DNA of 64,000 nt, taken from the NCBI GenBank assembly GCA_963845185.1, contig CAWJRG010000009.1, positions 640,001 to 704,000 on the forward strand, written 5' to 3'. A program made the translations under genes and the position numbers. Origin of the DNA: an uncultured bacterium. Its GTDB lineage: Bacteria; Oederibacteriota; PGYV01; CAWJRG01. The notes beneath the pieces were generated by a model. It did not search any database. It was not told the DNA's origin and saw nothing but the letters and a program-made list of their open reading frames with translations. The first letter of the stretch is position 1. Every line of letters begins with the position of its first letter. Shown piece by piece: positions 19,637-62,853 of the stretch.

Positions 19637-19728
19637 TTATAAAAATTTTTAAAAATCATTTCCAAACGTAAAGGATTTGATGAAAATACATTAATTTGAT
19701 AGAATGTAAACAAAAGTAAAGGAGCTTT

Positions 19729-21630: not shown

Positions 21631-22442
21631 AGGAGTTAATAAATATAGTAAATACGAAATATAAAGAATTTGATATAAATAAATTAGATTATAATAAACC
21701 GTATTTTATTGTTTCTCCAAAAGACGATCTGGAAGGAATAATTTTGGAGAATGAAACAATTATGTTAAAATATAAAGAAATGTTTTCGTTTAAAATGCCA
21801 ACTGGTAATATTTGTAATTTAAGACAATGGATAATTTTATATAACAAAGATATAAACGATATAACATATTTTAGAAATTATTTCTATGATAACAATTGTA
21901 ATCCATATGCAATAGCTATGCTGTTTAAATATTTGCGTTATAATGTTAAAGAATTAACAAATTTAACGCAATTTCCACCATTGAATTTTAAAAAAACTAA
22001 AGAAGAACAATCAAATGCAATGGATCTTGTTATACAAAAGGCTGAACCTTCGGATTTAATATTTGTATATGATAGAAAAAGTGGAATTTCTAAGTATATT
22101 AGAAAAATAGATAGATGTATGTGGTCGCATTGCGGGGGAATCAATATGAATAAAGAAATTATTGAAATGACAACTGCCGGAATTAGAAGGGGTAGTTTTG
22201 AAGAATATAGAAATGAAAATATAGATTTAGGATTGTATAGATTGAAACAACAAATTTCATTTGAGAGTAAGGAAAAGATGCATGATTTTTCAGAAGATAA
22301 ATTAAGGAAACAAACAAGATATAACTGGAAGGGTGTTGTTAAACTTTATTTGAAAAAGAAATTTAAAATTCCTATTGACGCAGGTCCGTCCCCGGCGGAT
22401 ATAATATACGGTAATAAATTGCAATTAATTGCATATGCATAA
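21627..22442 (+). CDS. Permuted papain-like (YiiX/YaeF, NlpC/P60-related) domain protein
   Basis: 'PSDLIF...ISKYIR..D...WSHCG', 'RYNW', 'SPADII'; no CSE-type catalytic Cys motif seen; ATGA overlap with mod. Confidence 0.55.
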   Translation: MKELINIVNTKYKEFDINKLDYNKPYFIVSPKDDLEGIILENETIMLKYKEMFSFKMPTGNICNLRQWIILYNKDINDITYFRNYFYDNNCNPYAIAMLFKYLRYNVKELTNLTQFPPLNFKKTKEEQSNAMDLVIQKAEPSDLIFVYDRKSGISKYIRKIDRCMWSHCGGINMNKEIIEMTTAGIRRGSFEEYRNENIDLGLYRLKQQISFESKEKMHDFSEDKLRKQTRYNWKGVVKLYLKKKFKIPIDAGPSPADIIYGNKLQLIAYA

Positions 22443-22499
22443 TAGTTATATATCCATATCGCTCTTTGAACAAATCAATGAAGAGTGAGGTTGCGGACA

Positions 22500-23745
22500 A
22501 TGATTGAAAGAGAAGATTTAAAGGATATTAAAAATACAGTTGCTCATTTAAATGATTTAGCTAAAGTTTTTCACAAATTTAATGTAGAAGATTGGTCAAT
22601 ATTATGGTATGCCCGTAATAAACGCGCTGGTGAAAGTCTTGAAAATCTATACTTTGTAAAAGATAAGGATTTCATTAATGCTGTTGAAAGTGTTTATCGT
22701 GAAGGAAGACAAATAGCCGTAGATTTATCATATGATTTACCGCTCATTGATCAAATCGAAGTTTTCCCTAAGATATTCTAATTATTTAGATCATATGAAT
22801 AATTATTTTGACTTAGTTGATAAAATTGCACCCGAATTTTTAAAATGGGAACAAATAATTAATGCGAAAAGGGATTATGAAGTAGATTATGGCGCGATTG
22901 ACGATATGATAAAACTTTTTAAAGCACAGTTAAATTTAATAAAGGGTTTAAAAAATGATTTTGAAAATATTAAGAACTCAGAAAGATTTAAAATTGAAAA
23001 CGATTCAAAAATAATTGAAAATGTACAAAATACAAATCAAAATAATAAATCTTTAATTTTTATAAGTTATAATGTAATTGATAAAGTAATTGCGGGTGAA
23101 ATATTTGACTTTTTGAATACTTTTTTTGAAGTTTTTTTAGCTCATGAAAAAATTAAATCCGGCGTTGATTGGCAAGAGGAGATAATACTTAATTTACAAA
23201 AAGCAGATATATTTATGCCTATTATAACTAAATCATTCAAACAGTCGGATTGGACTGATCAAGAATGCGGAATTGCATATTTATTAGCAAATTTAAAAAA
23301 CACAAAAATACTTCCGCTTAATAAACCACAATCACATAAAAAAAATCTTCCATATGGATTTATAAGTAAATTTCAATCTTTTCCTTTTACTGATATGAAA
23401 AAACAAGAAGAGCAGATTGAATTTTTTGCAAAATTATTAGAATTAATCAATAAAAACGAAAAAAAACGTTTATTTGATTTGCTTGTTTTAAAACTTACAG
23501 GATGCAATACAAAAAACGACTGTACAAAATATACAAGAATGCTATTACACTTTGATATAACAGAATATAGACTTAATAAGATTTTTGAAGCTTTTAGCAT
23601 GGATATTAGTAAAAAATATTCTAAAAGTATAATAAAAATATTTGAGGATTTTATTAAAAACAAACATATCGAATTTTTAGATAAATTTAAAAAATTCAAA
23701 GCTTCTATTTTTAAACAAATTAGCATAAAAAATGGTAAAACATGA
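22500..23745 (+). CDS. TIR-domain protein, probably one gene split by a frameshift near 22770 (ORFs 22485-22781 and 22732-23745)
   Basis: IFISY..D...A..I, VFLAHEKIKSGVDWQEEI...L, SDWTDQECG (catalytic-type Glu); very AT-rich. Confidence 0.75.
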
Positions 23746-23786
23746 AACTACATTTTGATTCCAATCAGGCATATCAATTAGAGGCG
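23742..23786 (+). repeat. Truncated copy 1 of the res 5' end (MKLHFDSNQAYQLEA)
   Basis: ATGAAACTACATTTTGATTCCAATCAGGCATATCAATTAGAGGCG, compare 27679-27723. Confidence 0.9.
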
Positions 23787-23956
23787 GCTGGAAAAGACCG
23801 TGGTGAGTGCGACGTGGGACGTGGAACGGAAAATATAAACATTCGGAATTCGGGATTTGGAATTTGGTATTCGGGATTTGGGATTTGAAAGACACATTCA
23901 GCGTTTGGTATTCAAGAATTTGAATCCGGAATTCCAAATGCAGAATCGGAGTTACA

Positions 23957-25399
23957 ATGACAAAAAAGGAATTAATCAATAAAATCCAGGACATAGAGTG
24001 GGAGGATTTTGAAGTAAAAGAGGCAGCGGGAGGTTTGCCTAAATCCTCATGGGAGACTGTGAGCGCTTTTGCGAATACCGCCGGCGGGTGGATTGTATTC
24101 GGAGTTTCCGGCATGGGCTCAAAATACGCGATTACCGGAGTGGATAAGCCCGGGAAACTGGAGCAGGACTTTTTAAACACCCTTCGCGGGGATAAATTTA
24201 ACAGGAAAATCAGCGTTAAGTGCAAAAAATATAAAATTGAGGATAAAACCGTACTGGGATTTTACGTACCTTCGGCGCAGGGCAAAGACAAGCCGGTCTA
24301 TTTTAATTCCAAGGCAAATACTTTCATAAGGACAGGAAGCGGCGACCAGCGGGCGACAAGCGAAGAGATAGACGCCATGTACAGGAACTCTTCTTTCGAC
24401 AAAAAAGACGAGCAGCCGACGCGCTTTACGATAAAAAGCCTTGATGCCCGTACGATAGAACGCTTCAGGACATATCTGAAAAACATAAATCCCGGGCACA
24501 GATATAACAGCTTAAAAAATGAGGAATTTCTTGAAAAGCTGAGGGCGGTTTCACGGGGCAGGGTGACAATAGGCGGGCTTTTGTTTTTTGGGAAAGAAGA
24601 AAGCATAAGCGAATATGCGCCGGATTTCAGGATAGATTATCTGGAGATTTCCGGGACATCATACGGGGACGCGCCGGAACGCTACAGCTACAGGCTTCCT
24701 GAGGAAATCAATATTTTTAATTATTATTTCGCCGTAATGGACAGGCTGATGAGAAAAATAGATATTCCTTTCAAACTCAAAGGAATGGCAAGGGACGAAA
24801 ACCCGCCGCAGTTGACCGCGATAAGGGAAGCGCTTGTAAACCTGCTGATGCACAGCGATTATTTCAGCGGCGCAAAGCCGAGGATAAGGGTATTCACCGA
24901 CAGGATAGAGTTCTTTAATCCAGGCTCTTTGCCGAAAGAGATAAAATACATTTTAAAGGAAGATTTTTCGCTTCCGAGAAACCCGACCATAGCCAGGTCG
25001 TTCAGGATGGTACAGCTTGCCGAAAGCATAGGCTCGGGATTTTATAAAATGATAAACGGCTGGAAATCCTACTACAAAATAAAACCTGAAATAACAGGCG
25101 ATTTTGATTATTATAAAATCGTATTTAAATTTGAATCCGCGGCTGATGATGCTGTAAATGTCCCTGTAAATGTCCCTGTAAATGCCCCTGTAAATGCCCC
25201 TGTAAATGCCCCTGTAAAAAGATTGGAAATGATAGTAGAACAAATGAAAGTTAACGACAGGATAACATTTGTGCAATTAGCAAAGTTTCTTAAGGTAGAT
25301 GTGACTACAATAAGGCGAAATGTCTCAAAATTGAAAAATGAGGGGCGAATAAGGAGAATAGGGCCGGATAAGAACGGAAGATGGGAAGTGCTTAAATGA
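23957..25399 (+). CDS. AlbA_2/Schlafen-like domain, RecG-C-like ATPase region and C-terminal HTH
   Basis: E...FEVKEA, WETVSAFANT.GG.IVFGV, AIREALVN.L.H.DY, RIEF.NPG, RNP.IA; 12-bp repeat before the HTH. Confidence 0.85.
   Translation: MTKKELINKIQDIEWEDFEVKEAAGGLPKSSWETVSAFANTAGGWIVFGVSGMGSKYAITGVDKPGKLEQDFLNTLRGDKFNRKISVKCKKYKIEDKTVLGFYVPSAQGKDKPVYFNSKANTFIRTGSGDQRATSEEIDAMYRNSSFDKKDEQPTRFTIKSLDARTIERFRTYLKNINPGHRYNSLKNEEFLEKLRAVSRGRVTIGGLLFFGKEESISEYAPDFRIDYLEISGTSYGDAPERYSYRLPEEINIFNYYFAVMDRLMRKIDIPFKLKGMARDENPPQLTAIREALVNLLMHSDYFSGAKPRIRVFTDRIEFFNPGSLPKEIKYILKEDFSLPRNPTIARSFRMVQLAESIGSGFYKMINGWKSYYKIKPEITGDFDYYKIVFKFESAADDAVNVPVNVPVNAPVNAPVNAPVKRLEMIVEQMKVNDRITFVQLAKFLKVDVTTIRRNVSKLKNEGRIRRIGPDKNGRWEVLK
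25152..25218 (+). repeat. In-frame 12-bp tandem repeat (CTGTAAATGYCC, 5.5 copies)
   Basis: Encodes VNVP/VNAP repeats. Confidence 0.9.
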
Positions 25400-25440
25400 A
25401 ATTACATTTTGATGCCAATCAGGCATATCAATTAGAGGCG
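25396..25440 (+). repeat. Truncated copy 2 of the res 5' end (MKLHFDANQAYQLEA)
   Basis: ATGAAATTACATTTTGATGCCAATCAGGCATATCAATTAGAGGCG. Confidence 0.9.
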
Positions 25441-25634
25441 GCTAGAAAAGCAGGGGTAAGGGGGAAGGGTGGAACAGATAAAAGCGGGGGAAGTGGTAAG
25501 GGGCCCTTCGACAGGCTCAGGATGAAGAAAAGCAGTGGTAAGTGGGGATGGGAAGAGAAAGAAGTTTCTGGTTTCAAGTTTCTGGGTATTGAAAAGATAT
25601 TTGCTGTGACATAAATTACAGATAAAATAATAGA

Positions 25635-25792
25635 TACCCCACGGCTAAAGCCGTGGTACTGTAGTCCTACGACTTCGTCGTCGGACTCTTAACAAAGGGC
25701 TAACGCCCTTTGAAACCTCTCAGCAAGGTTGGATGTTTGATTTTAGTCTGCGTTCATTCAACCACGGGCAAGCCCGTGGTCTTCTGAACGCA
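25635..25792. mobile_element. Non-autonomous IS200/IS605-like palindromic element
   Basis: Terminal hairpins CCACGGCTAAAGCCGTGG and ACCACGGGCAAGCCCGTGGT resembling IS200/IS605 ends; no transposase. Confidence 0.6.
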
Positions 25793-25819
25793 TTTCTGAT
25801 AAACTAACGGAGTAAAACA

Positions 25820-26344
25820 ATGGAAAAACAACAGTTTGAAAAGCTCGATAAGCTTGCGGACAGGATATGCGATAAATTCGCGGAGCTGGATAAAAAGGGC
25901 GCGTTTTCCGGAATAGAAGAGGAAATGAATAAAATTTGCTCTGAACTGCCGGAGAAATACGACATCACATTCCGGTTTACGCTTGGTATCTTCGACGAGG
26001 AAAAAGAAAATGAGATTCAGCTTCTTGAAACAGGCATAAGCTGTTTCGGGCAAAATACCGCGTACCGCCTGCAGGGCACGGGGTCAACGCCCCATTCATA
26101 CCTCGTAAACGGCAAAATATCAAAAATTCCGCATGATTATTGCCCTGCATGCTGGGGCCGGTGGGATTTTAAGCTGAAAAATAAAACATGCCCTGGGTGC
26201 GGGGCAGTGATGGGCAAGGAAGTAAAACTCATGCTCGACTCGGACGTCTGCCCGTCATGCGAAGACGGCAAAATCACGCGGAACAACCCGAAATGCGGCA
26301 AGTGCGGGTTTGAAGTGGACGGAACTACGGTATACTGGGGATGA
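25820..26344 (+). CDS. Hypothetical protein with four CxxC pairs (double zinc ribbon)
   Basis: CPAC, CPGC, CPSC, CGKC; RBS GGAG. Confidence 0.75.
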   Translation: MEKQQFEKLDKLADRICDKFAELDKKGAFSGIEEEMNKICSELPEKYDITFRFTLGIFDEEKENEIQLLETGISCFGQNTAYRLQGTGSTPHSYLVNGKISKIPHDYCPACWGRWDFKLKNKTCPGCGAVMGKEVKLMLDSDVCPSCEDGKITRNNPKCGKCGFEVDGTTVYWG

Positions 26345-26611
26345 CGCCGCGTAGCGGCGAGAGATTTGAACAGTAGAAAGGTGAATTGAAGACAGTGGTA
26401 AGTGATAGAGATAAGGGGGAAGTGGTAAGGGGTATGGGGCAGAAGAGCAAGTTTCTGGGGTTTCTGGTTTCTAAATGAGGAAAAATGAGCGAAAGAATCC
26501 TGCGACAGGCTCAGGACTAACAAGTAAAAGCGTGCGGCAGAAAGAACAGGAAAAGGCCGATTCAGTTATCCGGAATTTCCGGAATACTGATGTTTATGAG
26601 GAGCGTGAAAC

Positions 26612-27682
26612 ATGAATGAAAAAAGCGGGCTGCCCGCGAAAACAGAGTTTCTTTTATACACGACAGAGGACGGGAAAACAAGAATCCAGACCCGCATGCA
26701 GAATGAGACTGTGTGGCTGACACAGCAGATGATGGCGGATTTATTCCGGACTACAAAGCAGAATATCAGTTTGCATATTCAAAATATATTAAAAGAGGGC
26801 GAATTGGGCGAGGGGGCAACTGTCAAGGATTTCTTGACAGTTCAAAATGAGGGCGGAAGGGATATCAAAAGAAACATAGAATATTATAATCTCGACATGA
26901 TTATATCCGTCGGATACCGCGTAAAAAGCGTCATAGCCACGCAATTCCGCATATGGGCCACGCAAAGGCTGAAAGAGTATATCATAAAGGGATTTACCAT
27001 GGACGACGACAAACTGAAGCAGGCAGGCGGCGGGAACTATTTCGAAGAACTGCTCGCCCGCATACGGGATATAAGGTCTTCGGAAAAAATATTCTGGCGC
27101 AAGGTGCTGGATATATACGCCACAAGCATTGACTATAACCCGGATATTGATTTATCAAAGCAGTTTTTCGCGACAATACAGAATAAAATGCACTGGGCGG
27201 CCCACGGGCGGACCGCAGCTGAAGTTATCTACGGCAGGGCCGACGCCGCAAAACAAAACATGGGGCTGACAAACTGGGTAGGCGCGGGCATACGAAAGGA
27301 AGAGACTGAAATCGCCAAAAATTACCTTAACGAAAAAGAACTGGATATGCTGAACAGGATAGTGACGGCTTATCTTGAGTTTGCCGAGGTCCAGGCCTTG
27401 AACCGCAGGCCCATGACAATGAAAGACTGGATAGCCAAGCTGGATGATTTTTTAAAGCTTTCAGGCAGGGATATACTGACGCACGCAGGGACAATAAGCC
27501 ATGATAAAGCCCTGAAAAAAGCCCATGAGGAGTACGAAAAATACAGGGCGGCGCGGATGGACGCGCCGTCTGAGGCTGAAAAGGATTTTCTGGAAGCGGA
27601 AAAAGAAATAAAAAGAATTGAGAAAACGGCAAAGAATAAAAAAATAAAAAATTCAAAAAAGAAGAACAAAGGGAAAAGATGA
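26612..27682 (+). CDS. RhuM-family protein
   Basis: ETVWLTQ..MA.LF, YNLDMIISVGYRVKS..ATQFRIWAT, YFEELLARIRDIRSSEK. Confidence 0.9.
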   Translation: MNEKSGLPAKTEFLLYTTEDGKTRIQTRMQNETVWLTQQMMADLFRTTKQNISLHIQNILKEGELGEGATVKDFLTVQNEGGRDIKRNIEYYNLDMIISVGYRVKSVIATQFRIWATQRLKEYIIKGFTMDDDKLKQAGGGNYFEELLARIRDIRSSEKIFWRKVLDIYATSIDYNPDIDLSKQFFATIQNKMHWAAHGRTAAEVIYGRADAAKQNMGLTNWVGAGIRKEETEIAKNYLNEKELDMLNRIVTAYLEFAEVQALNRRPMTMKDWIAKLDDFLKLSGRDILTHAGTISHDKALKKAHEEYEKYRAARMDAPSEAEKDFLEAEKEIKRIEKTAKNKKIKNSKKKNKGKR

Positions 27683-30315
27683 AATTACATTTTGACTCCA
27701 ACCAGCAGTATCAATTAGAGGCGATGAAAGCTATTACAGATATTTTCGAAGGCCAGCCGATGAACTCCAGCGATTTCGAGTTCTCGGCGGACGTGGGCGG
27801 GTCGCTGCTGTACAACGAATTCGGCGTGGCGAATAAGCTCGTCCTGGACGACAGGCAAATAAAGAAAAACCTCAGCGTGGTCCAAAAACGCAACGGGATA
27901 CGGGACATACCGGAATTCGCGGGCATGAACTTTTCCGTGGAAATGGAAACAGGCACGGGCAAAACATACGTTTATTTGCGCACGATATACGAGATGAACA
28001 AGCTTTACGGCTTCAAGAAATTCATAATCGTGGTGCCGGGCATAGCCATACGCGAAGGAGTATTGAAAAACCTCGAAATCACACACGAACATTTCCAGGA
28101 GCTGTACTCAAAGACGCCGTGCAAATACTTTGTATATGACTCCTCGAATGTCTCGAACCTGCGCAGTTTCGCGCTGAACAACTCAATCCAGATACTCGTC
28201 ATAAACATAGACTCGTTCGCGAAGGACGAAAACGTCATAAACAAAGTCAATGACAGGCTGACAGGCAAAAAGCCGGTAGAATTCATACGCGGGGTAAACC
28301 CGATAGTCATAGTTGACGAGCCGCAAAACATGGAGACCGAGATAAGGAAGCGCGCCATAGCGAACCTGAACCCGCTGTGTACGCTGCGGTACTCGGCTAC
28401 ACACACAAACCTTTACAACCCTGTTTACAGCCTGAACCCTGTGAAGGCGTATGACATGGGGCTGGTAAAGCAGATAGAAGTGGACTCGGTATATACCGAG
28501 AACGACTTTAACCGCGCCTATGTGGCGCTCAAATCGCTATCATCCACAAAAACACGCACAAGCGCGAAGCTGGAAATAGACATAGAAACAGAAAACGGGA
28601 CAAAGCGAAAGCTGGTGACTGTGAAAGTGGGCGATAACCTGCATGACCTGTCCGGGAAAAGGGAAATATACAGCGATAATTTCACTGTGGAGCGCATTGA
28701 CCTGAAAAAAGAAATTGTAGGGTTCGCAAACGGCATAGAGATAGCTAAAGGCGAGGCAAAGGGCGGGCTGACTGACGAGGTAATGAAAGTGCAGATAGAA
28801 AAGACAATACAGGAGCATTTGGAAAAAGAGAAAAGATACAGGGACAAGGGGCTCAAAGTCCTGTCCCTGTTTTTCATAGACAGGGTAGCGAACTACAGGA
28901 CGCCTGATGGGCAAAAAGGCAAAATAGCGCTGTGGTTCGAGGAATCATATAAAAAACTCATAAAGAAACCCGAATATAAAAGCCTGCTGCCGTATAAGGT
29001 GGAGCAGATGCATAACGGATATTTTGCGCAGGATAAAAAAGGTAACTTTAAAGATTCTTCGGAAGGCAGGGATACCCAGGACGATGATAAGGCATATCAG
29101 TTAATAATGCAAAAAAAAGAACAACTTCTTGATATAAACGAGCCCCTGCGTTTTATATTCAGCCACTCTGCCCTGCGCGAGGGATGGGACAACCCGAACG
29201 TGTTCCAGATATGCGCGCTCAGGGAAATATCCACACAAAGGCAAAGGCGGCAGACAATAGGCAGGGGCATGCGGCTCGCGGTGGACCAGCAGGGAATGAG
29301 GAACCAGGAAAGGGACATAAACAGGCTCACTGTCATAGCGGGCGAGAGTTTTGAGGAGTTTGCAGACGGCCTGCAAAAGGAAATTGAAAGCGAGTGCGGG
29401 GTAAAGTTCGAAAACAGGATAAAGGACAGAAATAAAAGAATATCAGTGAAGCTGAAGAAAAACTACGCGCTCGATAAAAATTTCATGGACATGTGGGACA
29501 AAATAAAACAAAAAACAACTTACAGGGTGGAGTTTGACACTGAAAAACTTGTTGAAGAGGGCGTAAAGACCATGAAGGAGATGCAGACAGTAAGTAGGCC
29601 TGAGGTTAGGTCTGAAAAAAATTATATGTTAATGGATAAAAAAGAAGGAATCCATGGCGATTTATTAGGTGAGGAAGTGCATCATATGGACACGAGCGCA
29701 ATGGATATCCCGGATATATACGCATTCATAGAGGATAAGACATGGATTACACGGAGCAGTATTTACAGGATTTTAAACGAGTCGGGAAGGTCGGCTGATA
29801 TACTGAAAAACCCGCAGCTTTTTCTCGACATGGCCGCTAAGCAGATAAAAGACGCGCTGAACAGGCTCATGGTGGACGGGATAAAGTACGAGAAAATAGG
29901 CGGGGCAGAGTATGCGATGATGTTGTTTAAGGATAGCGAAATAGAGTCCTATATAGATAACCTCTACAAAGTTAAAAATGAGGATAAGACAATAACCGAT
30001 TACGTGGAGGCCATATCCGGGCCCGAACTGCAATTCGCAAAGGACTGCGACAGCAGGGAGGATGTGGCGTTTTACATCAAACTGCCGCGCTGGTTCAGGA
30101 TACAGACGCCAATAGGCGACTATAACCCTGACTGGGCGCTGGTTTTCAAGGGCGAAAAAAAGCTGTACTTTGTGGCAGAGACAAAGTCAAGCCTTGACCC
30201 GAAAGAACGCAGGCAGGATGAGAACGACAAGATAAAATGCGGCGAGGCGCACTTCGCCGAGTTCCCGGACGTGAAGTATAAGGTAGTGAGGAACGTGGGG
30301 GAAGTGAAGGAATAA
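27679..30315 (+). CDS. res: Type III restriction endonuclease/helicase
   Basis: EMETGTGKTYVYL, IVDEPQ, LRYSATH, ALREGWDNPNVFQIC, YNPDWA...VAETK. Confidence 0.93.
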   Translation: MKLHFDSNQQYQLEAMKAITDIFEGQPMNSSDFEFSADVGGSLLYNEFGVANKLVLDDRQIKKNLSVVQKRNGIRDIPEFAGMNFSVEMETGTGKTYVYLRTIYEMNKLYGFKKFIIVVPGIAIREGVLKNLEITHEHFQELYSKTPCKYFVYDSSNVSNLRSFALNNSIQILVINIDSFAKDENVINKVNDRLTGKKPVEFIRGVNPIVIVDEPQNMETEIRKRAIANLNPLCTLRYSATHTNLYNPVYSLNPVKAYDMGLVKQIEVDSVYTENDFNRAYVALKSLSSTKTRTSAKLEIDIETENGTKRKLVTVKVGDNLHDLSGKREIYSDNFTVERIDLKKEIVGFANGIEIAKGEAKGGLTDEVMKVQIEKTIQEHLEKEKRYRDKGLKVLSLFFIDRVANYRTPDGQKGKIALWFEESYKKLIKKPEYKSLLPYKVEQMHNGYFAQDKKGNFKDSSEGRDTQDDDKAYQLIMQKKEQLLDINEPLRFIFSHSALREGWDNPNVFQICALREISTQRQRRQTIGRGMRLAVDQQGMRNQERDINRLTVIAGESFEEFADGLQKEIESECGVKFENRIKDRNKRISVKLKKNYALDKNFMDMWDKIKQKTTYRVEFDTEKLVEEGVKTMKEMQTVSRPEVRSEKNYMLMDKKEGIHGDLLGEEVHHMDTSAMDIPDIYAFIEDKTWITRSSIYRILNESGRSADILKNPQLFLDMAAKQIKDALNRLMVDGIKYEKIGGAEYAMMLFKDSEIESYIDNLYKVKNEDKTITDYVEAISGPELQFAKDCDSREDVAFYIKLPRWFRIQTPIGDYNPDWALVFKGEKKLYFVAETKSSLDPKERRQDENDKIKCGEAHFAEFPDVKYKVVRNVGEVKE

Positions 30316-30497
30316 TGAGGAGCAGGCCGCGCTCATGGGGGAAGGGATGGCGACTGGATAAGGCAATTATCAATTAAGAATTGTCAATTTTCAATAACAT
30401 GAATACCAAAGCAAATGCCGAATAGTCGGATTTATAATTAAAGCATAGATGTAAAAGTCTGCCGGCTTTTGTGCCGGTGAAAACGAAAGGGATAACA

Positions 30498-31283
30498 ATG
30501 TACAGGAAAATTTTTTGTTTTTTTGCAGTTGTTTTTTCAGTTTTACCGGCAGTGGCTTTTGCCGCAGGCTCTGACACGGCCCCGGACAGCGGGCAGGCAG
30601 TAACATCCGCGGTTCCTGCCGTGCAGGCGGCTCCTGTTCAGCAGTCCGCGCCTGTGTCTGACCAGTCATTTTACGCGGACAAGTTTTGCATTGCGTATAA
30701 CGGAGGACTGGATTTCAGGTGGTGGTTTGGAAAAAACTGGGGGCTTGAGATACCTATATCCGGCTCCACGACCGGCTCGCTTACCAAAGCCGACATCAGC
30801 GAGGGCGCACAGAATTCTTTCTACTGGAACGCTGTGACAGGGCTGAATTTTATTTTCCCTTTGCAGAACATATACGGGATTAACTTTAACTTTATCCCGG
30901 GTATTTACCTGAGCGGCAGCGAAAACCTTTACAGGAATGCTCCGAGTTACTGGAATTCCAACAATATATTTACTTATTATGAGCAGGATAGCTACAATTA
31001 CAGTTTTTCAGGAGGAATATCGCTGGGGCTGGAAGCGGAGGTTTTCCCGCATAATATATGCGACAAAATACCGCAGAACATCAGTTTCGGCAGCAAGTTT
31101 GCATTCAACTGCCTTTACAATTACGCTGAGTCGTGGAATCACTATCCGGGAATGAACCAGCAAATCCAGCAGTCGAACCCGTATTCGTCATTCACAGCTT
31201 TCCAGCGCAACGAAGGAATAATCACAAACTTCAGCATAGGCGGCAGTACCTGGAGCGCGCTGTATGTGAGATATTACTTCTGA
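30498..31283 (+). CDS. Secreted, probable outer-membrane beta-barrel protein
   Basis: Signal peptide ending AFA; aromatic-rich strands; C-terminal VRYYF. Confidence 0.7.
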   Translation: MYRKIFCFFAVVFSVLPAVAFAAGSDTAPDSGQAVTSAVPAVQAAPVQQSAPVSDQSFYADKFCIAYNGGLDFRWWFGKNWGLEIPISGSTTGSLTKADISEGAQNSFYWNAVTGLNFIFPLQNIYGINFNFIPGIYLSGSENLYRNAPSYWNSNNIFTYYEQDSYNYSFSGGISLGLEAEVFPHNICDKIPQNISFGSKFAFNCLYNYAESWNHYPGMNQQIQQSNPYSSFTAFQRNEGIITNFSIGGSTWSALYVRYYF

Positions 31284-31320
31284 TCAAGAGTTGCTTTAGC
31301 CGGCAGTCAACAGGCGGCTG

Positions 31321-31450
31321 GGAGGACTTCGGAGGGTCGGAAGGGCAGAAGAGCGGAAGGTTAGAGGATCGGAGGGGCAGAGGGTCGGAAGAGCAGAGGA
31401 ACGGAAGAGCGGAGGAACGGAAGAGCGGAGGAACGGAAGAGCGGAAGAAT
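31321..31450 (+). repeat. Degenerate purine-rich 8-mer tandem repeat (GGAAGAGC/GGAGGAAC)
   Basis: Visible 8-nt periodicity; similar tract at about 35509-35580. Confidence 0.75.
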
Positions 31451-31474
31451 GGCAAAGGCGTAAGGCAATTATCA

Positions 31475-31570
31475 ATACCTCTTGTCTTGCGCAAGCGCAA
31501 GACTTGAGCGGGTACTTTATAGCGTAATATTTTGTCTGCGCCTTCGGCTTGACAAAATAAACGCTATAAG
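31475..31570 (+). repeat. Two-hairpin dispersed element
   Basis: ATACCTCTTGTC-TTGCGCAAGCGCAA-GACTTGAGCGGGTAC; TATAGCGT-AA-TATTTTGTC..GACAAAATA-A-ACGCTATA. Confidence 0.88.
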
Positions 31571-31691
31571 TTTTCAATTTTCAATGAAAGAAGTAAAAGA
31601 ATTATCTATCCTCAGATTCAAGGCCATAATGCAACTTGATTTTATCATAACAGATGTTATAATTATGACGAGATTTGAAAGGGACGCTCAA

Positions 31692-31982
31692 ATGACTCAG
31701 TTACAGAAACAAACAGTAAAGAAACTGCTCTGGGACTATGATTTTACAGAAGAAGAATTCATGGATATCCTGAACGGGAAAACCGAACTGGGCAGCTTCA
31801 ACAGAAAATGGGCCGTGAGAAGGGCTGTTGAAGGGCTGAATTATTACGACCTTCTCGAGGTTGTAGGGCTCAAGACGCTTGCCGAGGTCTGGCCGGAGAT
31901 AAGGCAGACTTTCCGCATAAAAAACATTAAAGACGGAATTGATTATGTTTTACGAAAATACACTGTATCCGCTTCAAGATAA
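31692..31982 (+). CDS. Small protein upstream of an AbiEii-like gene (probable antitoxin partner)
   Basis: 'LLWDY' motif; overlaps the downstream nucleotidyltransferase gene. Confidence 0.6.
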   Translation: MTQLQKQTVKKLLWDYDFTEEEFMDILNGKTELGSFNRKWAVRRAVEGLNYYDLLEVVGLKTLAEVWPEIRQTFRIKNIKDGIDYVLRKYTVSASR

Positions 31983-32590
31983 ACTCCTCGGCACTATAGA
32001 CGGGCTGGGTCTGGCTTTTTACCTCACGGGCGGCACTGCGCTCGGCCGTTTCCATTTCAACCACAGGTACTCGGATGACCTTGATTTTTTCGTCAACAAC
32101 AACCCAAAATTTCAGGATGACGTCAATCTTATAATCCGGTCCATTGCGGGGCAGGGCCTGAAATACGCAGTTGAGAAAAAGGATGAAACTTTTTGCAGGC
32201 TTACTATTGAAAATATTCTCAAGGTGGATTTTGTGAATGCGTGCCTTCTTATTACGGCGAGGTTGAAATCAGGGCTGACGGGCCGTTTTCCCGCATTGAT
32301 AATCCCATGAATATATTGGCAAATAAAATTACCGCGTTCAGCGACAGGGAAGAGGCAAAGGACATATCCGATATCTGGATAATCGCAAAAAAATGCCTGT
32401 TAACTGGAAATCTGTTTTCACAGCGGCTGACAGCAAAGCTGCAGGGTTAAACGCCCCGCTGATAGCCAAGAAAATAGAGGAGTTTGACTTAAAGAGCCTG
32501 GCAAAAGTCAAATGGATAAAACAGCCGCCGGACGAAGAGTTTAAAAAAGATATTAAAAGGATTGCTGATGATATTTTGGGAATACGGTAA
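31945..32590 (+). pseudogene. AbiEii/AbiGii-family nucleotidyltransferase with two frameshifts (about 32240, 32392)
   Basis: YLTGGTAL..F...HRYSDDLDFF; KVDFVN-(D)VP; ILANKITA..R.EAKD..D in successive frames. Confidence 0.8.
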
Positions 32591-32648
32591 GATACTGATT
32601 AAAAAAAGAGATTTGATCCCTTTCCGCGAAGATCCCCGCTAATATATC

Positions 32649-33575
32649 ATGATGGTAAACTACAGTACAACTTCCATGAAAAAAGAGATGAGAGCATCGA
32701 CAAAAATAGTGCTTATAACCGGCATAATATACTTCATTGTTTTCCTTTTTGTGCCATTGTGCCCGTTTATATCGGCGGCGGCAGGCAATTTATCCGCGCG
32801 GATAATCCCGTTTTTTGCGGACAAATTGCCGCATAAAGCAGGGGCTGCGAGTATGCAGGAACTCGCCCAGGCGTCAGCCGATGCCGAGGTAAAAAAATGG
32901 GACACTCTGTTTGACCAGATACTAAAGGGGGACTACACCGGCAACACCGGCCCTGCGCCATTGGCCGGCAGTCAGGCAAAAGCCGCAGGGGAAACCGGCC
33001 TGTTGCAGGCTGTCACGCAGGGAAGGCTCCTGGCAGTATTTCCGATGGGGCTTGAATGCGACATTGGCAAGAAAGAATGCGGCATAATATTCGGCGCGGA
33101 TTATGAAAGGGCCTCGATGAAAATGACGGCGTTCGTTTCCTTCATGGGCATAAAGCCGGTGTTCACAGGGCTCAGGAGCGAGCCTGTATACGGCAAAATA
33201 GGGGACCTTGTCAAAATCCAGTTCGTGGGCATGCCTGTGTGGCACTATGCCTGCCTTTTTTTTAGCCTTGTCCTGATTTATTTCACGTTTTCCACGCTCA
33301 TGCTCTGCACGCAGAGCGGTGTGAAGCTGAAAATTTTCTGGCTCATATTCATCGCGTTCGGGGTATTTTCGCTGGCTACAGTCTGGGACAGGGCGGCGCC
33401 TGAAGTACTGTTTAGTTTTAAGCGCATTATTTTTTCATCCGCATCCTGGGTAAAATACCCTTTATACTCGCCGGCTGTGCTGACAATATCCCTGCCGCTC
33501 GGCGCGATAGTTTTCAGGGTGTTTTTGATGCTCAGGAGCCGGAAATCCAGGGACGGGTGGACAGAAAATGGGTAA
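32649..33575 (+). CDS. Hypothetical membrane protein
   Basis: N-terminal and three C-terminal hydrophobic segments; start uncertain. Confidence 0.65.
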   Translation: MMVNYSTTSMKKEMRASTKIVLITGIIYFIVFLFVPLCPFISAAAGNLSARIIPFFADKLPHKAGAASMQELAQASADAEVKKWDTLFDQILKGDYTGNTGPAPLAGSQAKAAGETGLLQAVTQGRLLAVFPMGLECDIGKKECGIIFGADYERASMKMTAFVSFMGIKPVFTGLRSEPVYGKIGDLVKIQFVGMPVWHYACLFFSLVLIYFTFSTLMLCTQSGVKLKIFWLIFIAFGVFSLATVWDRAAPEVLFSFKRIIFSSASWVKYPLYSPAVLTISLPLGAIVFRVFLMLRSRKSRDGWTENG

Positions 33576-33606
33576 GGGAGAAGTGGGAGGAAATGATGGG
33601 AAGAAG

Positions 33607-34312
33607 AACAAGTCTCTGGTTTCTGGTTTCAAGTTTCTGGGTAAAGACCAAGACCATTCAACAGTCCTTCGGCAGGCTCAGGGTAAAGCAGGGGGAAGGC
33701 GACAGCAAAGCTTAAAACAACCCTCATCCGCAGCCTAGGGCTGAACCAGCCCTATGTCAGCCGGGCTATTAGGCTCCTGGCAGTGCTAAACCTAGGGACA
33801 AAACAGGTAATTTACGGCCAAGCCGTATTATCCACATTTTTGGGAGGGCGGTATGGGAGGCAATTTACCGGATTCCGGTAAAATCAGGAATTGGCAGGGA
33901 TTTAGGGGTCTACCAGGCAGGCAATTTATGGGAATCCCATATTATCCACAATCCTGAGATAAAATTTCCAGGTATGAAGGGGTAGCGATATGTCGAAATT
34001 TCAACCATAATTCAAGAAAATACATGTAATTATTGGTTGAAATCGGCGTGGAAGGCAATTTACTAACAGTTAGTAAAAATGCCGGATTGGCAGGACTTCG
34101 GGGAGGCAATTCTTGGCAATGCCAATTTATCCACAGGAGCCGTTCGAAAAATGTGTAAATTTATACGCTGCGTATAAAATTTATGGCCTATGTGGCCTAT
34201 AAAGGAGGCAGTTCAGTGCAATGCACGGAAATCAGGCACCGGGAGGGGCCTGTCAGGAGGAATGGGAAGGAAAAAACAAGTCTCTGGTTTCTGGTTTCAA
34301 GTTTCTGGGTAA
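33607..34312. repeat. Non-coding block bracketed by a perfect 38-bp direct repeat and containing seven variable 6-3-6 palindromes
   Basis: AACAAGTCTCTGGTTTCTGGTTTCAAGTTTCTGGGTAA at 33607-33644 and 34275-34312; palindromes at 33813, 33866, 33927, 34061, 34112, 34162, 34214. Confidence 0.85.
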
Positions 34313-34337
34313 TGAGGGTACGCCCAAAAAAAATTAT

Positions 34338-34366
34338 TTGACAAGCAAACAAGATTATGTTAACAT
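34338..34366 (+). promoter_or_regulatory. Sigma70-type promoter of the HTH/Doc operon
   Basis: TTGACA-17 nt-TAACAT with TG extension. Confidence 0.65.
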
Positions 34367-34423
34367 TGTAATTAGGATTAACGATTGTTAACTAAGAACG
34401 CAAAGTTAACAAAACTTATAAAT

Positions 34424-34625
34424 TACCGCTTGCCAACGGCCTAACGGCCTTAGGCTTGAGCGGGTACATGGTCTCGTAATGTTTTACCGGCACCTTCGGC
34501 TTGGCAAAACAAACGCATAATATCAAGCACCGCTTGCCGGGATAAAACCCCGGCTGGAGCGGGTACATGCTTTCGTAATACTTTTCCTGCGCCTGTTGAC
34601 GGTTTGGAAAAGTAAACGAAAGCAA
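34424..34625 (+). repeat. Two tandem copies of the two-hairpin element (34424-34520, 34528-34625)
   Basis: ACCGCTTGCC..GGCT(T/G)GAGCGGGTAC twice; second copy ends at the RBS GGGAGG. Confidence 0.85.
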
Positions 34626-34637
34626 GGGAGGCAATTT

Positions 34638-34898
34638 ATGAAAGACAAAAAAGATTTTTATTCTATCGCAGAGTTCGGAAAAATACTGGGAATCAGCAGG
34701 ATAGCTGTTTATAAAAAGATAAAAAAAGGCGATATCAAGGCAATCCAGATAGGCAAATCATACGCCATTCCTGCCGATATGCTTGAAAGTATTGAAGGAA
34801 ACGAATTGAATGAGAGCGAAAAGGAACAGCTCGGGAAAGCCGTTAAAAAAGTTTTTGAAAATTACGGAGAAACAATCAAAAAGCTCGGGAAAGAATAA
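34638..34898 (+). CDS. Excisionase-like HTH protein, probable antitoxin
   Basis: YSIAEFGKILGISRIAVYKKIKKGDIKA; C-terminal YGETIKKL; abuts the Doc gene. Confidence 0.75.
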   Translation: MKDKKDFYSIAEFGKILGISRIAVYKKIKKGDIKAIQIGKSYAIPADMLESIEGNELNESEKEQLGKAVKKVFENYGETIKKLGKE

Positions 34899-35327
34899 AT
34901 GAAGGCAATAAAGAAAATTACAATAAGGGATATTGAATATATTTCACATAAAATGGCATCCGAAATGATGGACTATAACGAGCCTATACCTAATTTTTCC
35001 ACGAGGTTCCCGAATATACTTGAAAGCTGTCTTGCCACGCCTTTCATGAGTTTTGGCACCAGGGACCTTTATAAAACCCTTGTTGATAAGGCAGCTGTTT
35101 TGTTTTACCTTATGATAAAAAACCATCCTTTCCAGAACGGCAACAAAAGGGTGGCAATAACAACCCTGATTGTTTTTCTCACGAAGAATGAAAAATGGCT
35201 GGATGCCAAAAACGATGACCTGTATGAGTTTACCGTATGGATTGCGTCCAGCCCGGCAAGGTCCAAGGATGAGGCTATAAAAGCAATAGAGGAATTTATT
35301 TCATCGGGGATGGTTGATTATAAATAA
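34899..35327 (+). CDS. doc: Doc (death-on-curing) family toxin
   Basis: LY....DKAA.L...IKNHPFQNGNKRVA. Confidence 0.88.
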   Translation: MKAIKKITIRDIEYISHKMASEMMDYNEPIPNFSTRFPNILESCLATPFMSFGTRDLYKTLVDKAAVLFYLMIKNHPFQNGNKRVAITTLIVFLTKNEKWLDAKNDDLYEFTVWIASSPARSKDEAIKAIEEFISSGMVDYK

Positions 35328-35360
35328 TTGCCGGGTTTCAATAAAAAATAATAATTAAAC

Positions 35361-35388
35361 GTAGAGACGTTTTGCAAAACGTCTCTAC
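35361..35388. repeat. GTAG-family REP palindrome
   Basis: Perfect 28-bp palindrome GTAGAGACGTTTTGCAAAACGTCTCTAC. Confidence 0.8.
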
Positions 35389-35649
35389 AGATAAAAACAA
35401 TATCATATCAATACCGCTTGTCCTCGGCAGATTCAGGACAATGCTCGGGGTAAAGCAGAATAGGGAGTGATATGGGGGAAGTGGCCCTTCGACAAGCTCA
35501 GGGGAAGAGGATTGGAGGGTTGGAAGGTCGGAAGCTCGGAAGGTCGGAGGAGCAGAGGCTCAGAAGTTCAGAAGTTCAATTTTCAATTTAAAACCTTTAA
35601 TCCATATAAAAAATTACGGCTTAAAGTATTATTTGGTATTATTTAGTAC

Positions 35650-35678
35650 TTGACTTACTTAATAAGCAATGATATACT
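35650..35678 (+). promoter_or_regulatory. Sigma70-type promoter of the RelE-type TA operon
   Basis: TTGACT-17 nt-TATACT with TG extension. Confidence 0.7.
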
Positions 35679-35711
35679 TAAAAAAAGATGGGAATCGGGA
35701 ATAGAGAATAG

Positions 35712-35936
35712 GCGGGTTTACAAAATAAACGTTATACAAACACCTCTTGTCCGCGGCAGTAGCCTCGGACTTGAGCGGGTGTAAGCAAGAGTAATATTTT
35801 GCTGCACCCTGCGGGTTTACAAAATAAACGTTATACAAACACCTCTTGTCCGCGGCAGTAGCCTCGGACTTGAGCGGGTGTAAGCAAGAGTAATATTTTG
35901 CTGCACCCTGCGGGTTTACAAAATAAACTCTTGCTT
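35712..35936 (+). repeat. Exact 99-bp tandem duplication giving two copies of the two-hairpin element
   Basis: 35712-35810 equals 35811-35909; final stem AAGCAAGAGT/ACTCTTGCTT abuts AGGAGG. Confidence 0.9.
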
Positions 35937-35948
35937 AGGAGGACTATC

Positions 35949-36203
35949 ATGGCAGGAAAAAATATTACTTTCACACTAAAACTCGACAAGGATATAAGGA
36001 GCCTTTTGAAGGATTTTTGCGAATCAAGGGGGCTTCTTATGAACAGTTTTGTGGAGCGGGCCATAATCGATGAAATCGAAAAGGAAGAGTTAAAAGAAGA
36101 CCTGGCCGCAATACAGCATTACGAGAAATTTGAGCGGGATTCCACGATACCGCTCGATAAGGTTGCTGAAGAGCTGAATTTTTATGCCAAAAAGAAGAAA
36201 TAA
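35949..36203 (+). CDS. Probable RHH-type antitoxin
   Basis: ITFTLKLD beta-strand, acidic C-terminus, directly upstream of RelE. Confidence 0.75.
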   Translation: MAGKNITFTLKLDKDIRSLLKDFCESRGLLMNSFVERAIIDEIEKEELKEDLAAIQHYEKFERDSTIPLDKVAEELNFYAKKKK

Positions 36204-36205
36204 CC

Positions 36206-36478
36206 GTGTATAAGCTGGAACTATCAGCCACTGCTTACAGGATATTAAAGTCAAAAAAACTCATTCCGAAAGACAACGCTGCAATAAAAGACAGGATTTT
36301 AAGCCTGCAGAACGACCCGCGATCACCCGGCTGCGAGAAACTGAAGGGTTTTGACAAAAACTATTACAGGGTCAGGCAGGGCAATTACAGGATTGTTTAT
36401 GAGATAAAAGACACAGAGAAAATAGTGGCAATAGTTTTCATAGGGCACAGGCGGGATGTGTACGGAAAAATCGGGTAA
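36206..36478 (+). CDS. RelE/ParE-family toxin
   Basis: PR..GCEKLKG...YRVRQGNYRIVYEI....IGHRRDVY. Confidence 0.92.
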   Translation: MYKLELSATAYRILKSKKLIPKDNAAIKDRILSLQNDPRSPGCEKLKGFDKNYYRVRQGNYRIVYEIKDTEKIVAIVFIGHRRDVYGKIG

Positions 36479-36578
36479 GTAAATAGTAAAGCTCAAAAGT
36501 TCAAGGTTCAAAGTTCAAGGCGGTAACAGTTGAACAGTAGAACAGGTGAGATAAGAAAGGTTCAATTCTCAATTGTCA

Positions 36579-36845: not shown

Positions 36846-36944
36846 ATACCGCTTGTCGGGATAAAACCCTGACTTGAGCGGGTACATGATTTCGTAATAC
36901 TTTGCCGGCGCCTATTGACGGCTTGGCAAAGTAAACTAAATCAA
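36846..36944 (+). repeat. Two-hairpin dispersed element directly before an RBS
   Basis: ATACCGCTTGTC..GACTTGAGCGGGTAC; TGATTTCGT-AA-TACTTTGCC..GGCAAAGTA-A-ACTAAATCA-AGGAGG. Confidence 0.88.
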
Positions 36945-36954
36945 GGAGGCAGTC

Positions 36955-46406: not shown

Positions 46407-46602
46407 TACCGCTTGTCCGGGTAGAACCCGGACTTGAGCGGGTACATGATTCCGTAATACTTTACCAGCGCCTGTTGACGGCTTGGTAAAGTAAACGAAA
46501 TTATAAGTACCTCTTGTCCCTCATAAACTCGGGACTTGAACGGGTACTTGATCTCGTAATGTTTTATCATCGCTTTCAGCTTGATAAAACAAACGATCTC
46601 AA
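46407..46602 (+). repeat. Two tandem, diverged copies of the two-hairpin element (46407-46503, 46508-46602)
   Basis: Stems TACTTTACC/GGTAAAGTA and TGTTTTATC/GATAAAACA; second copy ends at AAGGAGG. Confidence 0.88.
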
Positions 46603-47165: not shown

Positions 47166-47264
47166 ATACCGCTTGTCAGGATAAAACCCTGACTGGAACA
47201 GGTACATGATTTCGTAATACTTTGCCAGCGCCTGTCGACGGCTTGGCAAAGTAAACGAAATCAA
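47166..47264 (+). repeat. Two-hairpin dispersed element directly before an RBS
   Basis: TGATTTCGT-AA-TACTTTGCC..GGCAAAGTA-A-ACGAAATCA-AGGGAGG. Confidence 0.88.
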
Positions 47265-47278
47265 GGGAGGTTTATACT

Positions 47279-61852: not shown

Positions 61853-62853
61853 AAAAAATCTTAATCTCAGTACTAATTTTAATTGCAATTTTATTTACAA
61901 TCACATGTTCAAAAAATTCTTCATCTTCTTCGGCGTCACCATCCGGCCCCAACCCGACACCGGTTATAACCCCGGTCCCTACGGCCGGATATCCGTATTC
62001 GGATCTTGTACCTGCTTCCGGTGGCGCATTTACCCAGTCAGATACGTCTGGAAACAGTTTCTCCTCCACAGTCTCTGCTTTTAAAATAGGAAAGTATCAG
62101 GTGACCTATGATTTGTGGTACAAGGTACGACTTTGGACAGTTGCCAATGGATATACTTTTGCTTATTCAGGCCACGAAGGCAATACCGGGGCAGAAGGAG
62201 CAGTAACAACTACTGCAAAATACCTGCCGGTCACATATATAAGCTGGAGGGATGCCGTAGTATGGTGCAATGCATACAGCCAGATGACTGGGCTTACGCC
62301 TGTATACTGCACAGATTCAGGGTATGCCACGCCAATCAAGACTTCCATAGATGCAAGTTATGGCAGCAGTGTAGATACTGCTAACGGCAGTATTGATAAT
62401 CCATACGTGAACTGGAACGCAAACGGATACAGGCTGCCTACGGAGAGCGAATATCAGTACGCGGCAAGTTACATAGACGGCACAAACTGGACACCGTATA
62501 ACTATGCCAGCGGTGCAGAAGATATCTACTCGGACATAGCAGCGACCAGTCTTGTAGCGTGGTTTTATAGCGATTGCTCCGACATGCAGGCTGTGGGCTT
62601 GTTAAATGCAAACAAGCTTGGAATATATGATATGTCGGGAAATGTGCAGGAGTGGTGCTGGGATTGGTTTGGAACATATCCAACCACGGCTCAAACAGAT
62701 TACAGGGGCCCTGCGAGCGGTTCTGCCCGCGCATTACGCGGCGGAAGCTATACTGATTACGCAGCAGCCATGGAGGTCGGCATCCGTATAAGCAACGGCC
62801 CGTATAACTCGGGAAACCTGCTTCTCGGCTTCCGTGTTGCAAGGACGTATTAA
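61840..62853 (+). CDS. FGE-sulfatase (SUMF1-like) domain lipoprotein; original start ATG 59941 is interrupted by the intron
   Basis: ITCSK lipobox-like; PV..ISW.DA..WCN, GYRLPTE.E.QYAA, N.LGIYDMSGNVQEWCWD, RGGS, GFRVAR. Confidence 0.9.
   Translation: MSTHKKILISVLILIAILFTITCSKNSSSSSASPSGPNPTPVITPVPTAGYPYSDLVPASGGAFTQSDTSGNSFSSTVSAFKIGKYQVTYDLWYKVRLWTVANGYTFAYSGHEGNTGAEGAVTTTAKYLPVTYISWRDAVVWCNAYSQMTGLTPVYCTDSGYATPIKTSIDASYGSSVDTANGSIDNPYVNWNANGYRLPTESEYQYAASYIDGTNWTPYNYASGAEDIYSDIAATSLVAWFYSDCSDMQAVGLLNANKLGIYDMSGNVQEWCWDWFGTYPTTAQTDYRGPASGSARALRGGSYTDYAAAMEVGIRISNGPYNSGNLLLGFRVARTY

Follow-up and report, generated by a model that had tools for sequence, protein, structure and literature searches.

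The 64,000-nt stretch of genomic DNA analyzed here, referred to as the window (contig CAWJRG010000009.1, positions 640,001 to 704,000, of assembly GCA_963845185.1), contains at 33806 to 34236 an array of seven short palindromes, each different and each set in a constant sequence frame. The array near-certainly consists of noncoding, decayed, tandemly amplified copies of a ~55-bp palindrome module derived from genes for ParB-like proteins. A scan of the whole 3.5-Mb assembly for the combination of frame and palindrome placed the starts of the seven frames at window positions 33806, 33859, 33920, 34054, 34105, 34155, and 34207; the 15-bp cores begin 7 nt after the frames, at 33813, 33866, 33927, 34061, 34112, 34162, and 34214. 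Five of the seven cores are perfect 6-3-6 palindromes, and those at 34112 and 34214 contain one mismatch each. In six of the seven units, complementarity extends to the outer bases of the 3-nt "loop," turning the cores into 7-1-7 dyads, and the arms of units 2, 4, and 6 reach 8 bp (TTTA...TAAA). The right flanks of units 1 to 6 alternate between TTATCCACA and AAAAT, the former being present in three perfect copies, all on the plus strand (33828, 33942, and 34127). Unit spacing is irregular (50 to 61 bp), with one 134-bp gap between units 3 and 4 that is accounted for by a gene relic lying there. The units, coordinates, mismatches, and alternating flanks listed in an initial annotation of the window were borne out by direct reading and by the genome-wide pattern scan. 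The array and the relics that surround and interrupt it are arranged as follows:

33529..33660, plus strand: low-complexity C-terminal relic of a ParB-like gene, containing copy 1 of a direct repeat (33604-33647)
33720..33836, plus strand: decayed helix-turn-helix (HTH) coding relic that runs into unit 1, detected with hhalign and tblastn
33806..33836, plus strand: unit 1, GGTAATT, TACGGC-caa-GCCGTA, TTATCCACA; arms perfect, center asymmetric
33859..33885, plus strand: unit 2, GGCAATT, TACCGG-att-CCGGTA, AAAAT
33920..33950, plus strand: unit 3, GGCAATT, TATGGG-aat-CCCATA, TTATCCACA
33951..34053, plus strand: second decayed HTH-coding relic, between units 3 and 4, identified by tblastn and paralogy
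34054..34081, plus strand: unit 4, GGCAATT, TACTAA-cag-TTAGTA, AAAAAT; perfect 8-bp arms
34105..34135, plus strand: unit 5, GGCAATT, CTTGGC-aat-GCCAAT, TTATCCACA; one mismatch
34155..34181, plus strand: unit 6, GTAAATT, TATACG-ctg-CGTATA, AAAAT; perfect
34207..34232, plus strand: unit 7, GGCAGTT, CAGTGC-aat-GCACGG, AAAT; one mismatch
34272..34315, plus strand: copy 2 of the 44-nt direct repeat, a second C-terminal low-complexity relic and the end of the mosaic

Such an array is not expected by chance. In 2,000 dinucleotide-preserving shuffles of 33806 to 34236, a control proposed along with the initial annotation, perfect 6-3-6 palindromes occurred 0.15 times on average (maximum, 3) compared with the 5 observed; with one mismatch allowed, the shuffled mean was 2.5 (maximum, 9) compared with 7 observed. 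The 64-kb window as a whole contains 30 perfect 6-3-6 palindromes, equivalent to 0.2 per 431 nt. The original statement that no open reading frame (ORF) covers the region holds as well: all ORFs touching the array are at most 55 amino acids (aa) long and overlap it only partially, and stop codons are present in all three forward frames. No sign of an integron attC or CRISPR-type array was found, there being no ORF between the units and no integrase or Cas protein in Pfam scans of the neighboring genes, although attC boxes were not searched for.

The frame itself can be traced to protein-coding genes. The pattern scan detected it at five other places in the genome, one of which, C9:608677, lies within an intact 395-aa ORF (C1, C5, C9, and C10 denote contigs of this genome). 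In this copy, GGGAGGCAATTTACCGGAATCCGGTAAAATC encodes REAIYRNPVKS, such that GGAGGCAATT-TAC in the frame corresponds to the codons (R)EAIY, AAAATC to KS, and TTATCCACA to LST. The TTATCCACA flank matches the "LST" variant of the gene at C1:272715, and the (E)LST codon string is also found in C10:318216. Four intact and three broken paralogs were identified in the genome, each with an internal palindrome; the window itself contains no ParB-like gene. The palindromes occupy the same spot after the HTH and are all different and perfect: TTTACCGG.A.CCGGTAAA, TTTACCGA.A.TCGGTAAA, TTGTTCGC.T.GCGAACAA, and AACTCCGG.A.CCGGAGTT, the last followed by ATCCACA.

The protein encoded at C9:608240 matches the Pfam domain ParB_N (9.4e-14) and, over both domains, the NCBIfam Noc model TIGR04285 (7.6e-23), with a score of 81.2 bits against a cut-off of 315. 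In a PDB profile search with the family, Noc (7ng0) was the top match (1.8e-20, both domains), and Spo0J/ParB and KorB structures were matched as well; a Foldseek search with an AlphaFold2 (AF2) model (predicted local distance difference test score, 83) retrieved Noc bound to its binding site NBS (7ol9), ParB, and KorB (8qa9). The family is Noc-like by fold and alignment and is not a member of Noc. The ESM Atlas contains only generic ParB clusters, and a search for homologous proteins returned nine, with generic ParB names. The GxxR box is kept in some paralogs (SGARRLRAA and EGERRLRAA) and divergent in others, and some family members have a C terminus that looks hydrophobic or basic amphipathic and may contact the membrane. 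The genes located 3' of all four intact copies are of the accessory or defense type, namely, ParE; YhcG nucleases, DUF4145, and CoiA; a type IIG restriction-modification system with DUF4062; and a Gp49/HigB-like protein.

The in-gene palindrome is widespread among relatives. A profile of the HTH block, A2, detected the family in 22 of the 99 genomes searched from the phylum, including 19 of the 31 belonging to one family; a single genome yielded as many as 19 matches. The 72 genes examined are the 73 matches with E values of ≤1.3e-16 minus one that covers only model positions 1 to 98; approximately 88 weaker or partial matches were left out. Of these 72 genes, 55 contain a perfect palindrome that spans 6+3+6 or more, in every case at a relative position of 0.45 to 0.58 within the conserved block and with its center at codon position 2, and 47 distinct palindrome sequences are represented among the 55. 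In 200 codon-shuffled controls, a palindrome was present anywhere in a mean of 6.9 of the 72 genes (maximum, 17). The in-gene arms comprise 6 to 11 bp beside a 3-nt center and are usually symmetric to one central base, with the symmetry running through the center in 46 of the 55 genes. The outer arms are common within subfamilies (TTTA.., AGTGT.., or TTCTTG..), and the inner 3 to 4 bp vary. Comparison of a 63%-identical metagenomic relative with the C9:608240 gene revealed one compensated pair, TTTACCGC/GCGGTAAA. A search with a single protein yielded one irrelevant archaeal locus among genome contigs and 15 metagenome loci, only two of which (L183 and L184) are in the family.

The initial annotation had offered a palindrome-diversifying mechanism as one explanation of the differing cores. 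The diversity is indeed family wide but does not establish such a mechanism, and at least some units of the window originated in separate gene subfamilies rather than by diversifying in place. A second suggestion, that the array acts as a series of small RNA hairpins, is now disfavored. Seven short stem-loops do lie in a row on one strand, and their arms evidently have the potential to fold; nevertheless, this explanation is highly improbable, given that complementarity extends into the 3-nt "loop" in six of the seven units, as it does in 46 of the 55 genes, down to a single central base. Such symmetry suits a dimer on duplex DNA and is unusable for a hairpin. Moreover, the same palindromes lie inside the coding sequence of the parent genes, and no Rfam family matched the array: at the gathering score, Rfam 15 detected only two group II intron models at ~60 kb in the whole window, and a search of 33400 to 34750 at E values of up to 5 gave two chance-level matches with E values above 2.

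Relative to Noc, the family contains a palindrome-encoding insertion of ~7 residues, flanked by "EALLQR" and "AITERHAR." By alignment count, combined with the available part of a published account of ParB and Noc specificity (PMC7383237), the insertion lies ~9 to 10 residues before the base-reading position 201, on the N-terminal side of that helix, in a region that is not reliably alignable across the family. Recounting the alignment ruled out a placement of the palindrome-encoded peptide at specificity position 201 of ParB/Noc itself.

In some intact genes of relatives, the gene's own palindrome is repeated in frame at a spacing of exactly 42 bp (14 codons), an iteron-like arrangement, with three copies in L202/L203 (genome G079) and L205/L208 (G081) and two in L224 (G078). 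In G079, the pattern AGTGT-N11-ACACT has six sites, comprising three in known genes, one further perfect palindrome near a contig end, and two nonpalindromic sites. The genes next to the relatives' loci include PIN, MazEF, Fic, ORF6N, AAA_15, and NYN. Two of these loci also contain long odd palindromes beside the ParB-like genes (L049:925-1101 and L036:213-304), with the core TCGCAA-N-TTGCGA, variable outer arms, and arms of 11 to 17 bp, forming a family distinct from that of the array.

Returning to the window, remnants of the parent gene are recognizable on both sides of the units and between them. The segment 33720 to 33836 aligns with model positions 22 to 60 of the family alignment A2 (hhalign probability, 90%; E value, 1.5e-6) and with the C10:426119 protein (tblastn E value, 0.054). 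Weaker tblastn matches to the C9:608240 protein were obtained for 33899 to 34138 (residues 85 to 174; E value, 1.4; interrupted by stops) and for 33529 to 33630 (residues 323 to 354; E value, 1.7). The second HTH relic is paralogous to C9:917733-917896, with 77% identity. The C-terminal low-complexity relics coincide with 44-nt direct repeats that flank the array (33604-33647 and 34272-34315; 95% identity), and the reading KNKSLVSGFKF in the first of them corresponds to the read-through of the broken copy C10:318216. An alignment to a decayed coding gene was among the findings that the initial annotation had set as grounds for abandoning its interpretation, and such an alignment is indeed present in part.

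Individual units also point to the genes. Only unit 2 shares its arms, TTTACCGG/CCGGTAAA, with an intact gene, C9:608240, from which it differs solely by a flipped center. The core of unit 3 recurs at C10:651840 and has related forms at C9:917.7-917.9k, namely, TACGGG/CCCGTA and the one-mismatch intermediate TACGGG/CCCATA. The core of unit 5 is of the type TTCTTGGC.GCCAAGAA, which a relative carries as its in-gene palindrome (L213, G078), and the core of unit 7, identical mismatch included, recurs at C5:412.8k. In unit 4, the left arm contains a TAA stop in the reading frame of the family and the arms are nonetheless perfect, which implies that both changed after coding had been lost. Palindromy thus outlives coding.

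The constant frame, the two types of flank, and the apparent DnaA boxes formed by TTATCCACA all follow from descent from the gene module. The boxes raise a further possibility, that of a replicon origin or a datA/DARS-like secondary locus for DnaA binding: three perfect copies lie on one strand within 300 bp, and the 64 perfect boxes of the genome form only three clusters, in the window, in the paralogous array at C9:917.6-918.0k, and at C10:783.6k. This too is very unlikely, since the 9-mer is accounted for by the (E)LST codons of C1:272715 and C10:318216, the sign of the GC skew is constant throughout the window, and no initiator gene is located nearby. The third cluster, three perfect boxes at C10:783582-783658, is directly upstream of dnaA (784026-784508) and likely marks the chromosomal origin. 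A replication origin at the array was accordingly rejected: dnaA and its boxes are on another contig, there is no skew switch, and the boxes of the array are inherited codons.

The window array is one of five such loci in this genome, the others being C9:917.7k, C5:412.7k, C10:731.5k, and C10:651.8k; together, they comprise ~27 units, 4 to 7 at each locus. Complementary bases occupy 151 of the 162 arm positions in the 27 units, a count inflated by the selection of units as palindromes with no more than one mismatch; when the arms were re-dealt among the units, the mean dropped to 75, indicating that each unit has its own arms. Homologous units of the window and C9:917k have flanks that are ~77% identical and cores that are unrelated yet symmetric. 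The series TATGGG/CCCATA, TACGGG/CCCATA, and TACGGG/CCCGTA captures a compensated change together with its intermediate. A further palindrome, GTTTCA-NNN-TGAAAC, occurs five times in the genome (C5:413035, C9:918079, C10:652091, C10:731718, and C5:331495, the last upstream of dnaK) and opens four of the five array loci, often as ATGTTTCAAnnTGAAAC; its half-sites resemble canonical parS, but with a 3-nt center. Canonical parS was not found in the assembly with two patterns at up to two mismatches, except for one weak match. When GGCAATTTAY-N9-RTAAAATC was sought among genome contigs, 25 of the 80 sites read (among 112) had a palindromic N9 with no more than one mismatch; because homologous flanks were absent from all of them, these sites were dismissed as chance matches.

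What the module does can be approached through its resemblance to the sites of ParB-type proteins. From sequence and analogy, the balance tilts toward its being a putative binding site of the ParB-like proteins. Both the array and the gene palindromes offer dyad DNA of ~13 to 23 bp for a dimer, as expected of a ParB site, and a cognate protein gene with the site inside it is represented in this genome by the four intact and three broken paralogs. The initial annotation had spoken of operator-like sites for dimeric DNA-binding proteins; the odd dyads, their descent from an in-frame site of ParB/Noc-like genes, and the precedent of BisD, discussed below, lend weight to this suggestion, and the alignment of the region to decayed coding sequence as well detracts from it. 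The reading preferred here, with a probability of roughly 0.5, is that the palindromes are loading sites like parS, NBS, or bisS and that the window contains an orphan, decayed, amplified cluster of them within a defense island.

Under this reading, the palindrome of a gene would be the loading site at which the dimeric ParB-type clamp encoded by the same gene nucleates, the placement in the own gene being suggested by the rarity and confinement of each palindrome. The clamp would initially act in cis, both on its own locus and on the adjoining variable or defense island, over which it might spread in the manner of KorB or BisD. The units of the window would be copies of the module that lost the reading frame and mostly retained dyad symmetry. 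If still active, the array would be an orphan site cluster recruiting or titrating ParB-like clamps in the defense island; unit 2, with the site of an intact gene 65 kb away, indicates how this could occur. Persisting function of the window array is possible but against the odds.

Comparable arrangements exist in known systems. The canonical parS of chromosomal ParABS lies within the parB/spo0J gene, so that there, as here, a binding palindrome is embedded in the own gene of a ParB-family protein; parS, however, is one conserved 16-bp sequence across phyla, near oriC and served by ParA, whereas the palindromes described here are hypervariable and have no ParA neighbor. The sopC centromere repeats of F and the KorB operators (OB) of RK2 likewise consist of tandem ~40- to 60-bp units, each holding a short inverted repeat within a constant frame, and the KorB operator is an odd palindrome, TTTA...TAAA, as in units 2, 4, and 6. 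Conversely, sopC and OB have identical cores beside a plasmid par operon, in contrast to the differing cores, irregular spacing, and orphan chromosomal location of the array. NBS has A/T-rich outer arms, ATTT...AAAT, similar in flavor to the arms here. It differs in being an even, 16-bp sequence with tens of chromosomal copies, compared with odd, gene-specific palindromes in one to three copies, and Noc lacks the ~7-residue insertion, which is located exactly at the palindrome-encoding spot. Noc is nonetheless the best match in sequence and fold (7ol9 and 7ng0) and, in the available part of PMC7383237, an orphan ParB paralog with a palindromic site.

The closest functional parallel is BisD, a ParB-like CTP clamp of ICEclc that, according to the accessible text of PMC12409273, loads at an 11-1-11 palindrome, bisS, inside the genes inrR and ssb. 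As in the family described here, BisD is an orphan ParB-like protein without ParA, the palindrome is odd with one free central base, and the sites lie within coding sequences; BisD acts on neighboring genes of a mobile or accessory region, as the present family may do. The differences are that bisS is a single sequence present twice, in inrR and ssb rather than in bisD, whereas here the palindrome is in the clamp's own gene, in frame, and paralog specific, and that no BisC-like partner or activator domain was seen in the family. The present case stands apart by a candidate site located in frame within the codons for the clamp's own DNA-binding domain, its hypervariability among paralogs, and the presence of frame-less, amplified copies as arrays. 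No description of an in-frame hypervariable palindrome was found in the literature searched; the accessible portion of a survey preprint on orphan ParBs, supplements aside, does not contain the string "palindrom."

Several observations weigh against the loading-site reading. No consensus is shared by all sites, identical copies (two or three) being present only within single genes of relatives, and each specific palindrome is rare, with one to three copies in this genome, in the gene and sometimes in an array. The AGTGT-type palindromes of G079 are essentially confined to genes. No ParA partner was seen beside the genes in this genome or among the neighbors of the relatives. In addition, 17 of the 72 family genes lack a palindrome, as does a 47%-identical metagenomic relative, so the palindrome is not indispensable to the family. 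The 27 array units have 22 distinct cores compared with four intact paralogs, leaving most units without a cognate protein encoded by this genome. Finally, no array with this frame was detected in the ±1.5-kb flanks of 28 loci from relatives; the collection searched includes only one genome from the family of this organism, and with arrays found in this genome alone, their conservation cannot be shown.

Other observations fit decay as well as function and bring up the main alternative, that the array is inert debris, the wreck of one or two ParB-like pseudogenes in which a duplication-prone palindrome segment was multiplied in tandem and nothing is bound now. The palindromes would then persist due to the young age of the copies or to repair in which one arm, through a hairpin, serves as the template for the other. 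Mosaics of gene debris make up the array loci, which resemble one another only in patches; relics of the HTH and C-terminal regions, broken by stops and frameshifts, lie around and among the units; mismatches occur in 11 of the 27 units, and decay is severe in at least one unit at C9:917k. The one-mismatch intermediate between two perfect variants and the absence of arrays from the relatives examined point in the same direction, and tandem duplication of the module inside intact genes argues for an intrinsic tendency to duplicate. Even so, this explanation is considered unlikely, if to be taken seriously: five separate loci keep 4 to 7 units each, four of them opening with GTTTCA-NNN-TGAAAC, a palindrome present just five times in the genome; the 8-bp arms of unit 4 are perfect despite its in-frame stop; and the cores of homologous units in the window and C9:917k are symmetric although unrelated.

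A more elaborate possibility is that the family is a library of mutually orthogonal clamp/site pairs, with the site in loop codons beside the DNA-reading helix of its own reader, so that a change in the palindrome would alter site and protein together. To judge from the sequences, this is doubtful. The arrays would then stock alternative specificities to be transferred by gene conversion or act as decoy centromeres aimed at invading elements. The corresponding explanation of the arrays, as exchangeable cassettes donated by gene conversion to replace the palindrome and its encoded loop in an expressed ParB-like gene or as centromere-like decoys that titrate ParB-like proteins of invading plasmids or phages in an incompatibility-type defense, appears improbable. 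Constant flanks with variable cores are the layout of silent cassettes, the same cores at different loci with different flanks suggest mosaic exchange, some core types come from subfamilies that are not intact here (unit 5 compared with L213), and defense or mobile genes surround the window array and three of the other four loci. On the other hand, the flanks are short, measuring ~12 and ~30 nt on the left and right, respectively; the arrays have no gene for a recombinase or for diversity generation beside them; 4 of the 27 units would bring in-frame stops into any gene to which they were copied; no invader whose ParB matches was identified; and the C10:731k array is located between housekeeping genes.

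How ParB-type proteins and their sites diversify without cross talk is an open question, best studied as a single split, ParB/parS versus Noc/NBS, to go by the available part of PMC7383237. The present family offers dozens of natural paralogs in which the candidate site of each protein can be read directly from its gene, at a fixed in-frame position and as a different perfect palindrome in most. If binding proves true, the family would provide a ready matrix for the evolution of specificity, a source of orthogonal DNA-labeling pairs, and a lead on orphan ParB clamps at the edges of defense and accessory islands.

A co-oriented defense-type island extends from 19700 to 36500 of the window and includes genes for a Schlafen AlbA_2/ATPase, RhuM, a helicase plus endonuclease restriction protein, AbiEii fragments, HTH-Doc, and a ParE-like toxin with DUF6290; a stretch of low GC content (0.28 to 0.37) is present at 18 to 24 kb. 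The 308-aa ORF upstream of the array (32649-33575) encodes an unrelated membrane protein with no Pfam or NCBIfam family and no paralog in the genome. Downstream, the position of the array just ahead of an HTH/Doc operon (HTH_17 and Fic/DOC), pointed out initially, is correct, but a functional link does not follow, with ~400 bp containing other repeats in between. The frame GGAGGCAATTT, which had seemed to tie the array to this operon, is an ordinary ribosome-binding context: GGAGGCAATT precedes the ATG of the HTH gene, and the genome contains 17 such 10-mers, 6 of them in units.

The array and the HTH/Doc operon are separated by two tandem copies of a ~100-nt leader element unrelated to the array (34426-34633). 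Additional copies of this element lie at 36848-36951, 46408-46500, and 47168-47270 of the window, and C9:916520-917174 consists of seven tandem copies; in total, BLAST detected 73 dispersed pieces, including 23 near-full copies. The element has no Rfam match. Its stems are conserved and covary (CCGCT...AGCGG, a variable hairpin, and TTTGCC...GGCAAA), and it ends with AAGGGAGG followed by the ATG of unlike genes, among them metK-like and lysA-like genes, genes for lipoproteins and dehydrogenases, and one ParB-like gene. It may represent a portable promoter/5'-leader cassette or a leader RNA of an undescribed kind. A group II intron copy is located near the end of the window, with D1-D4 (100 bits) and domain V/VI (49 bits) matched at 59980-60214 and 61767-61853.

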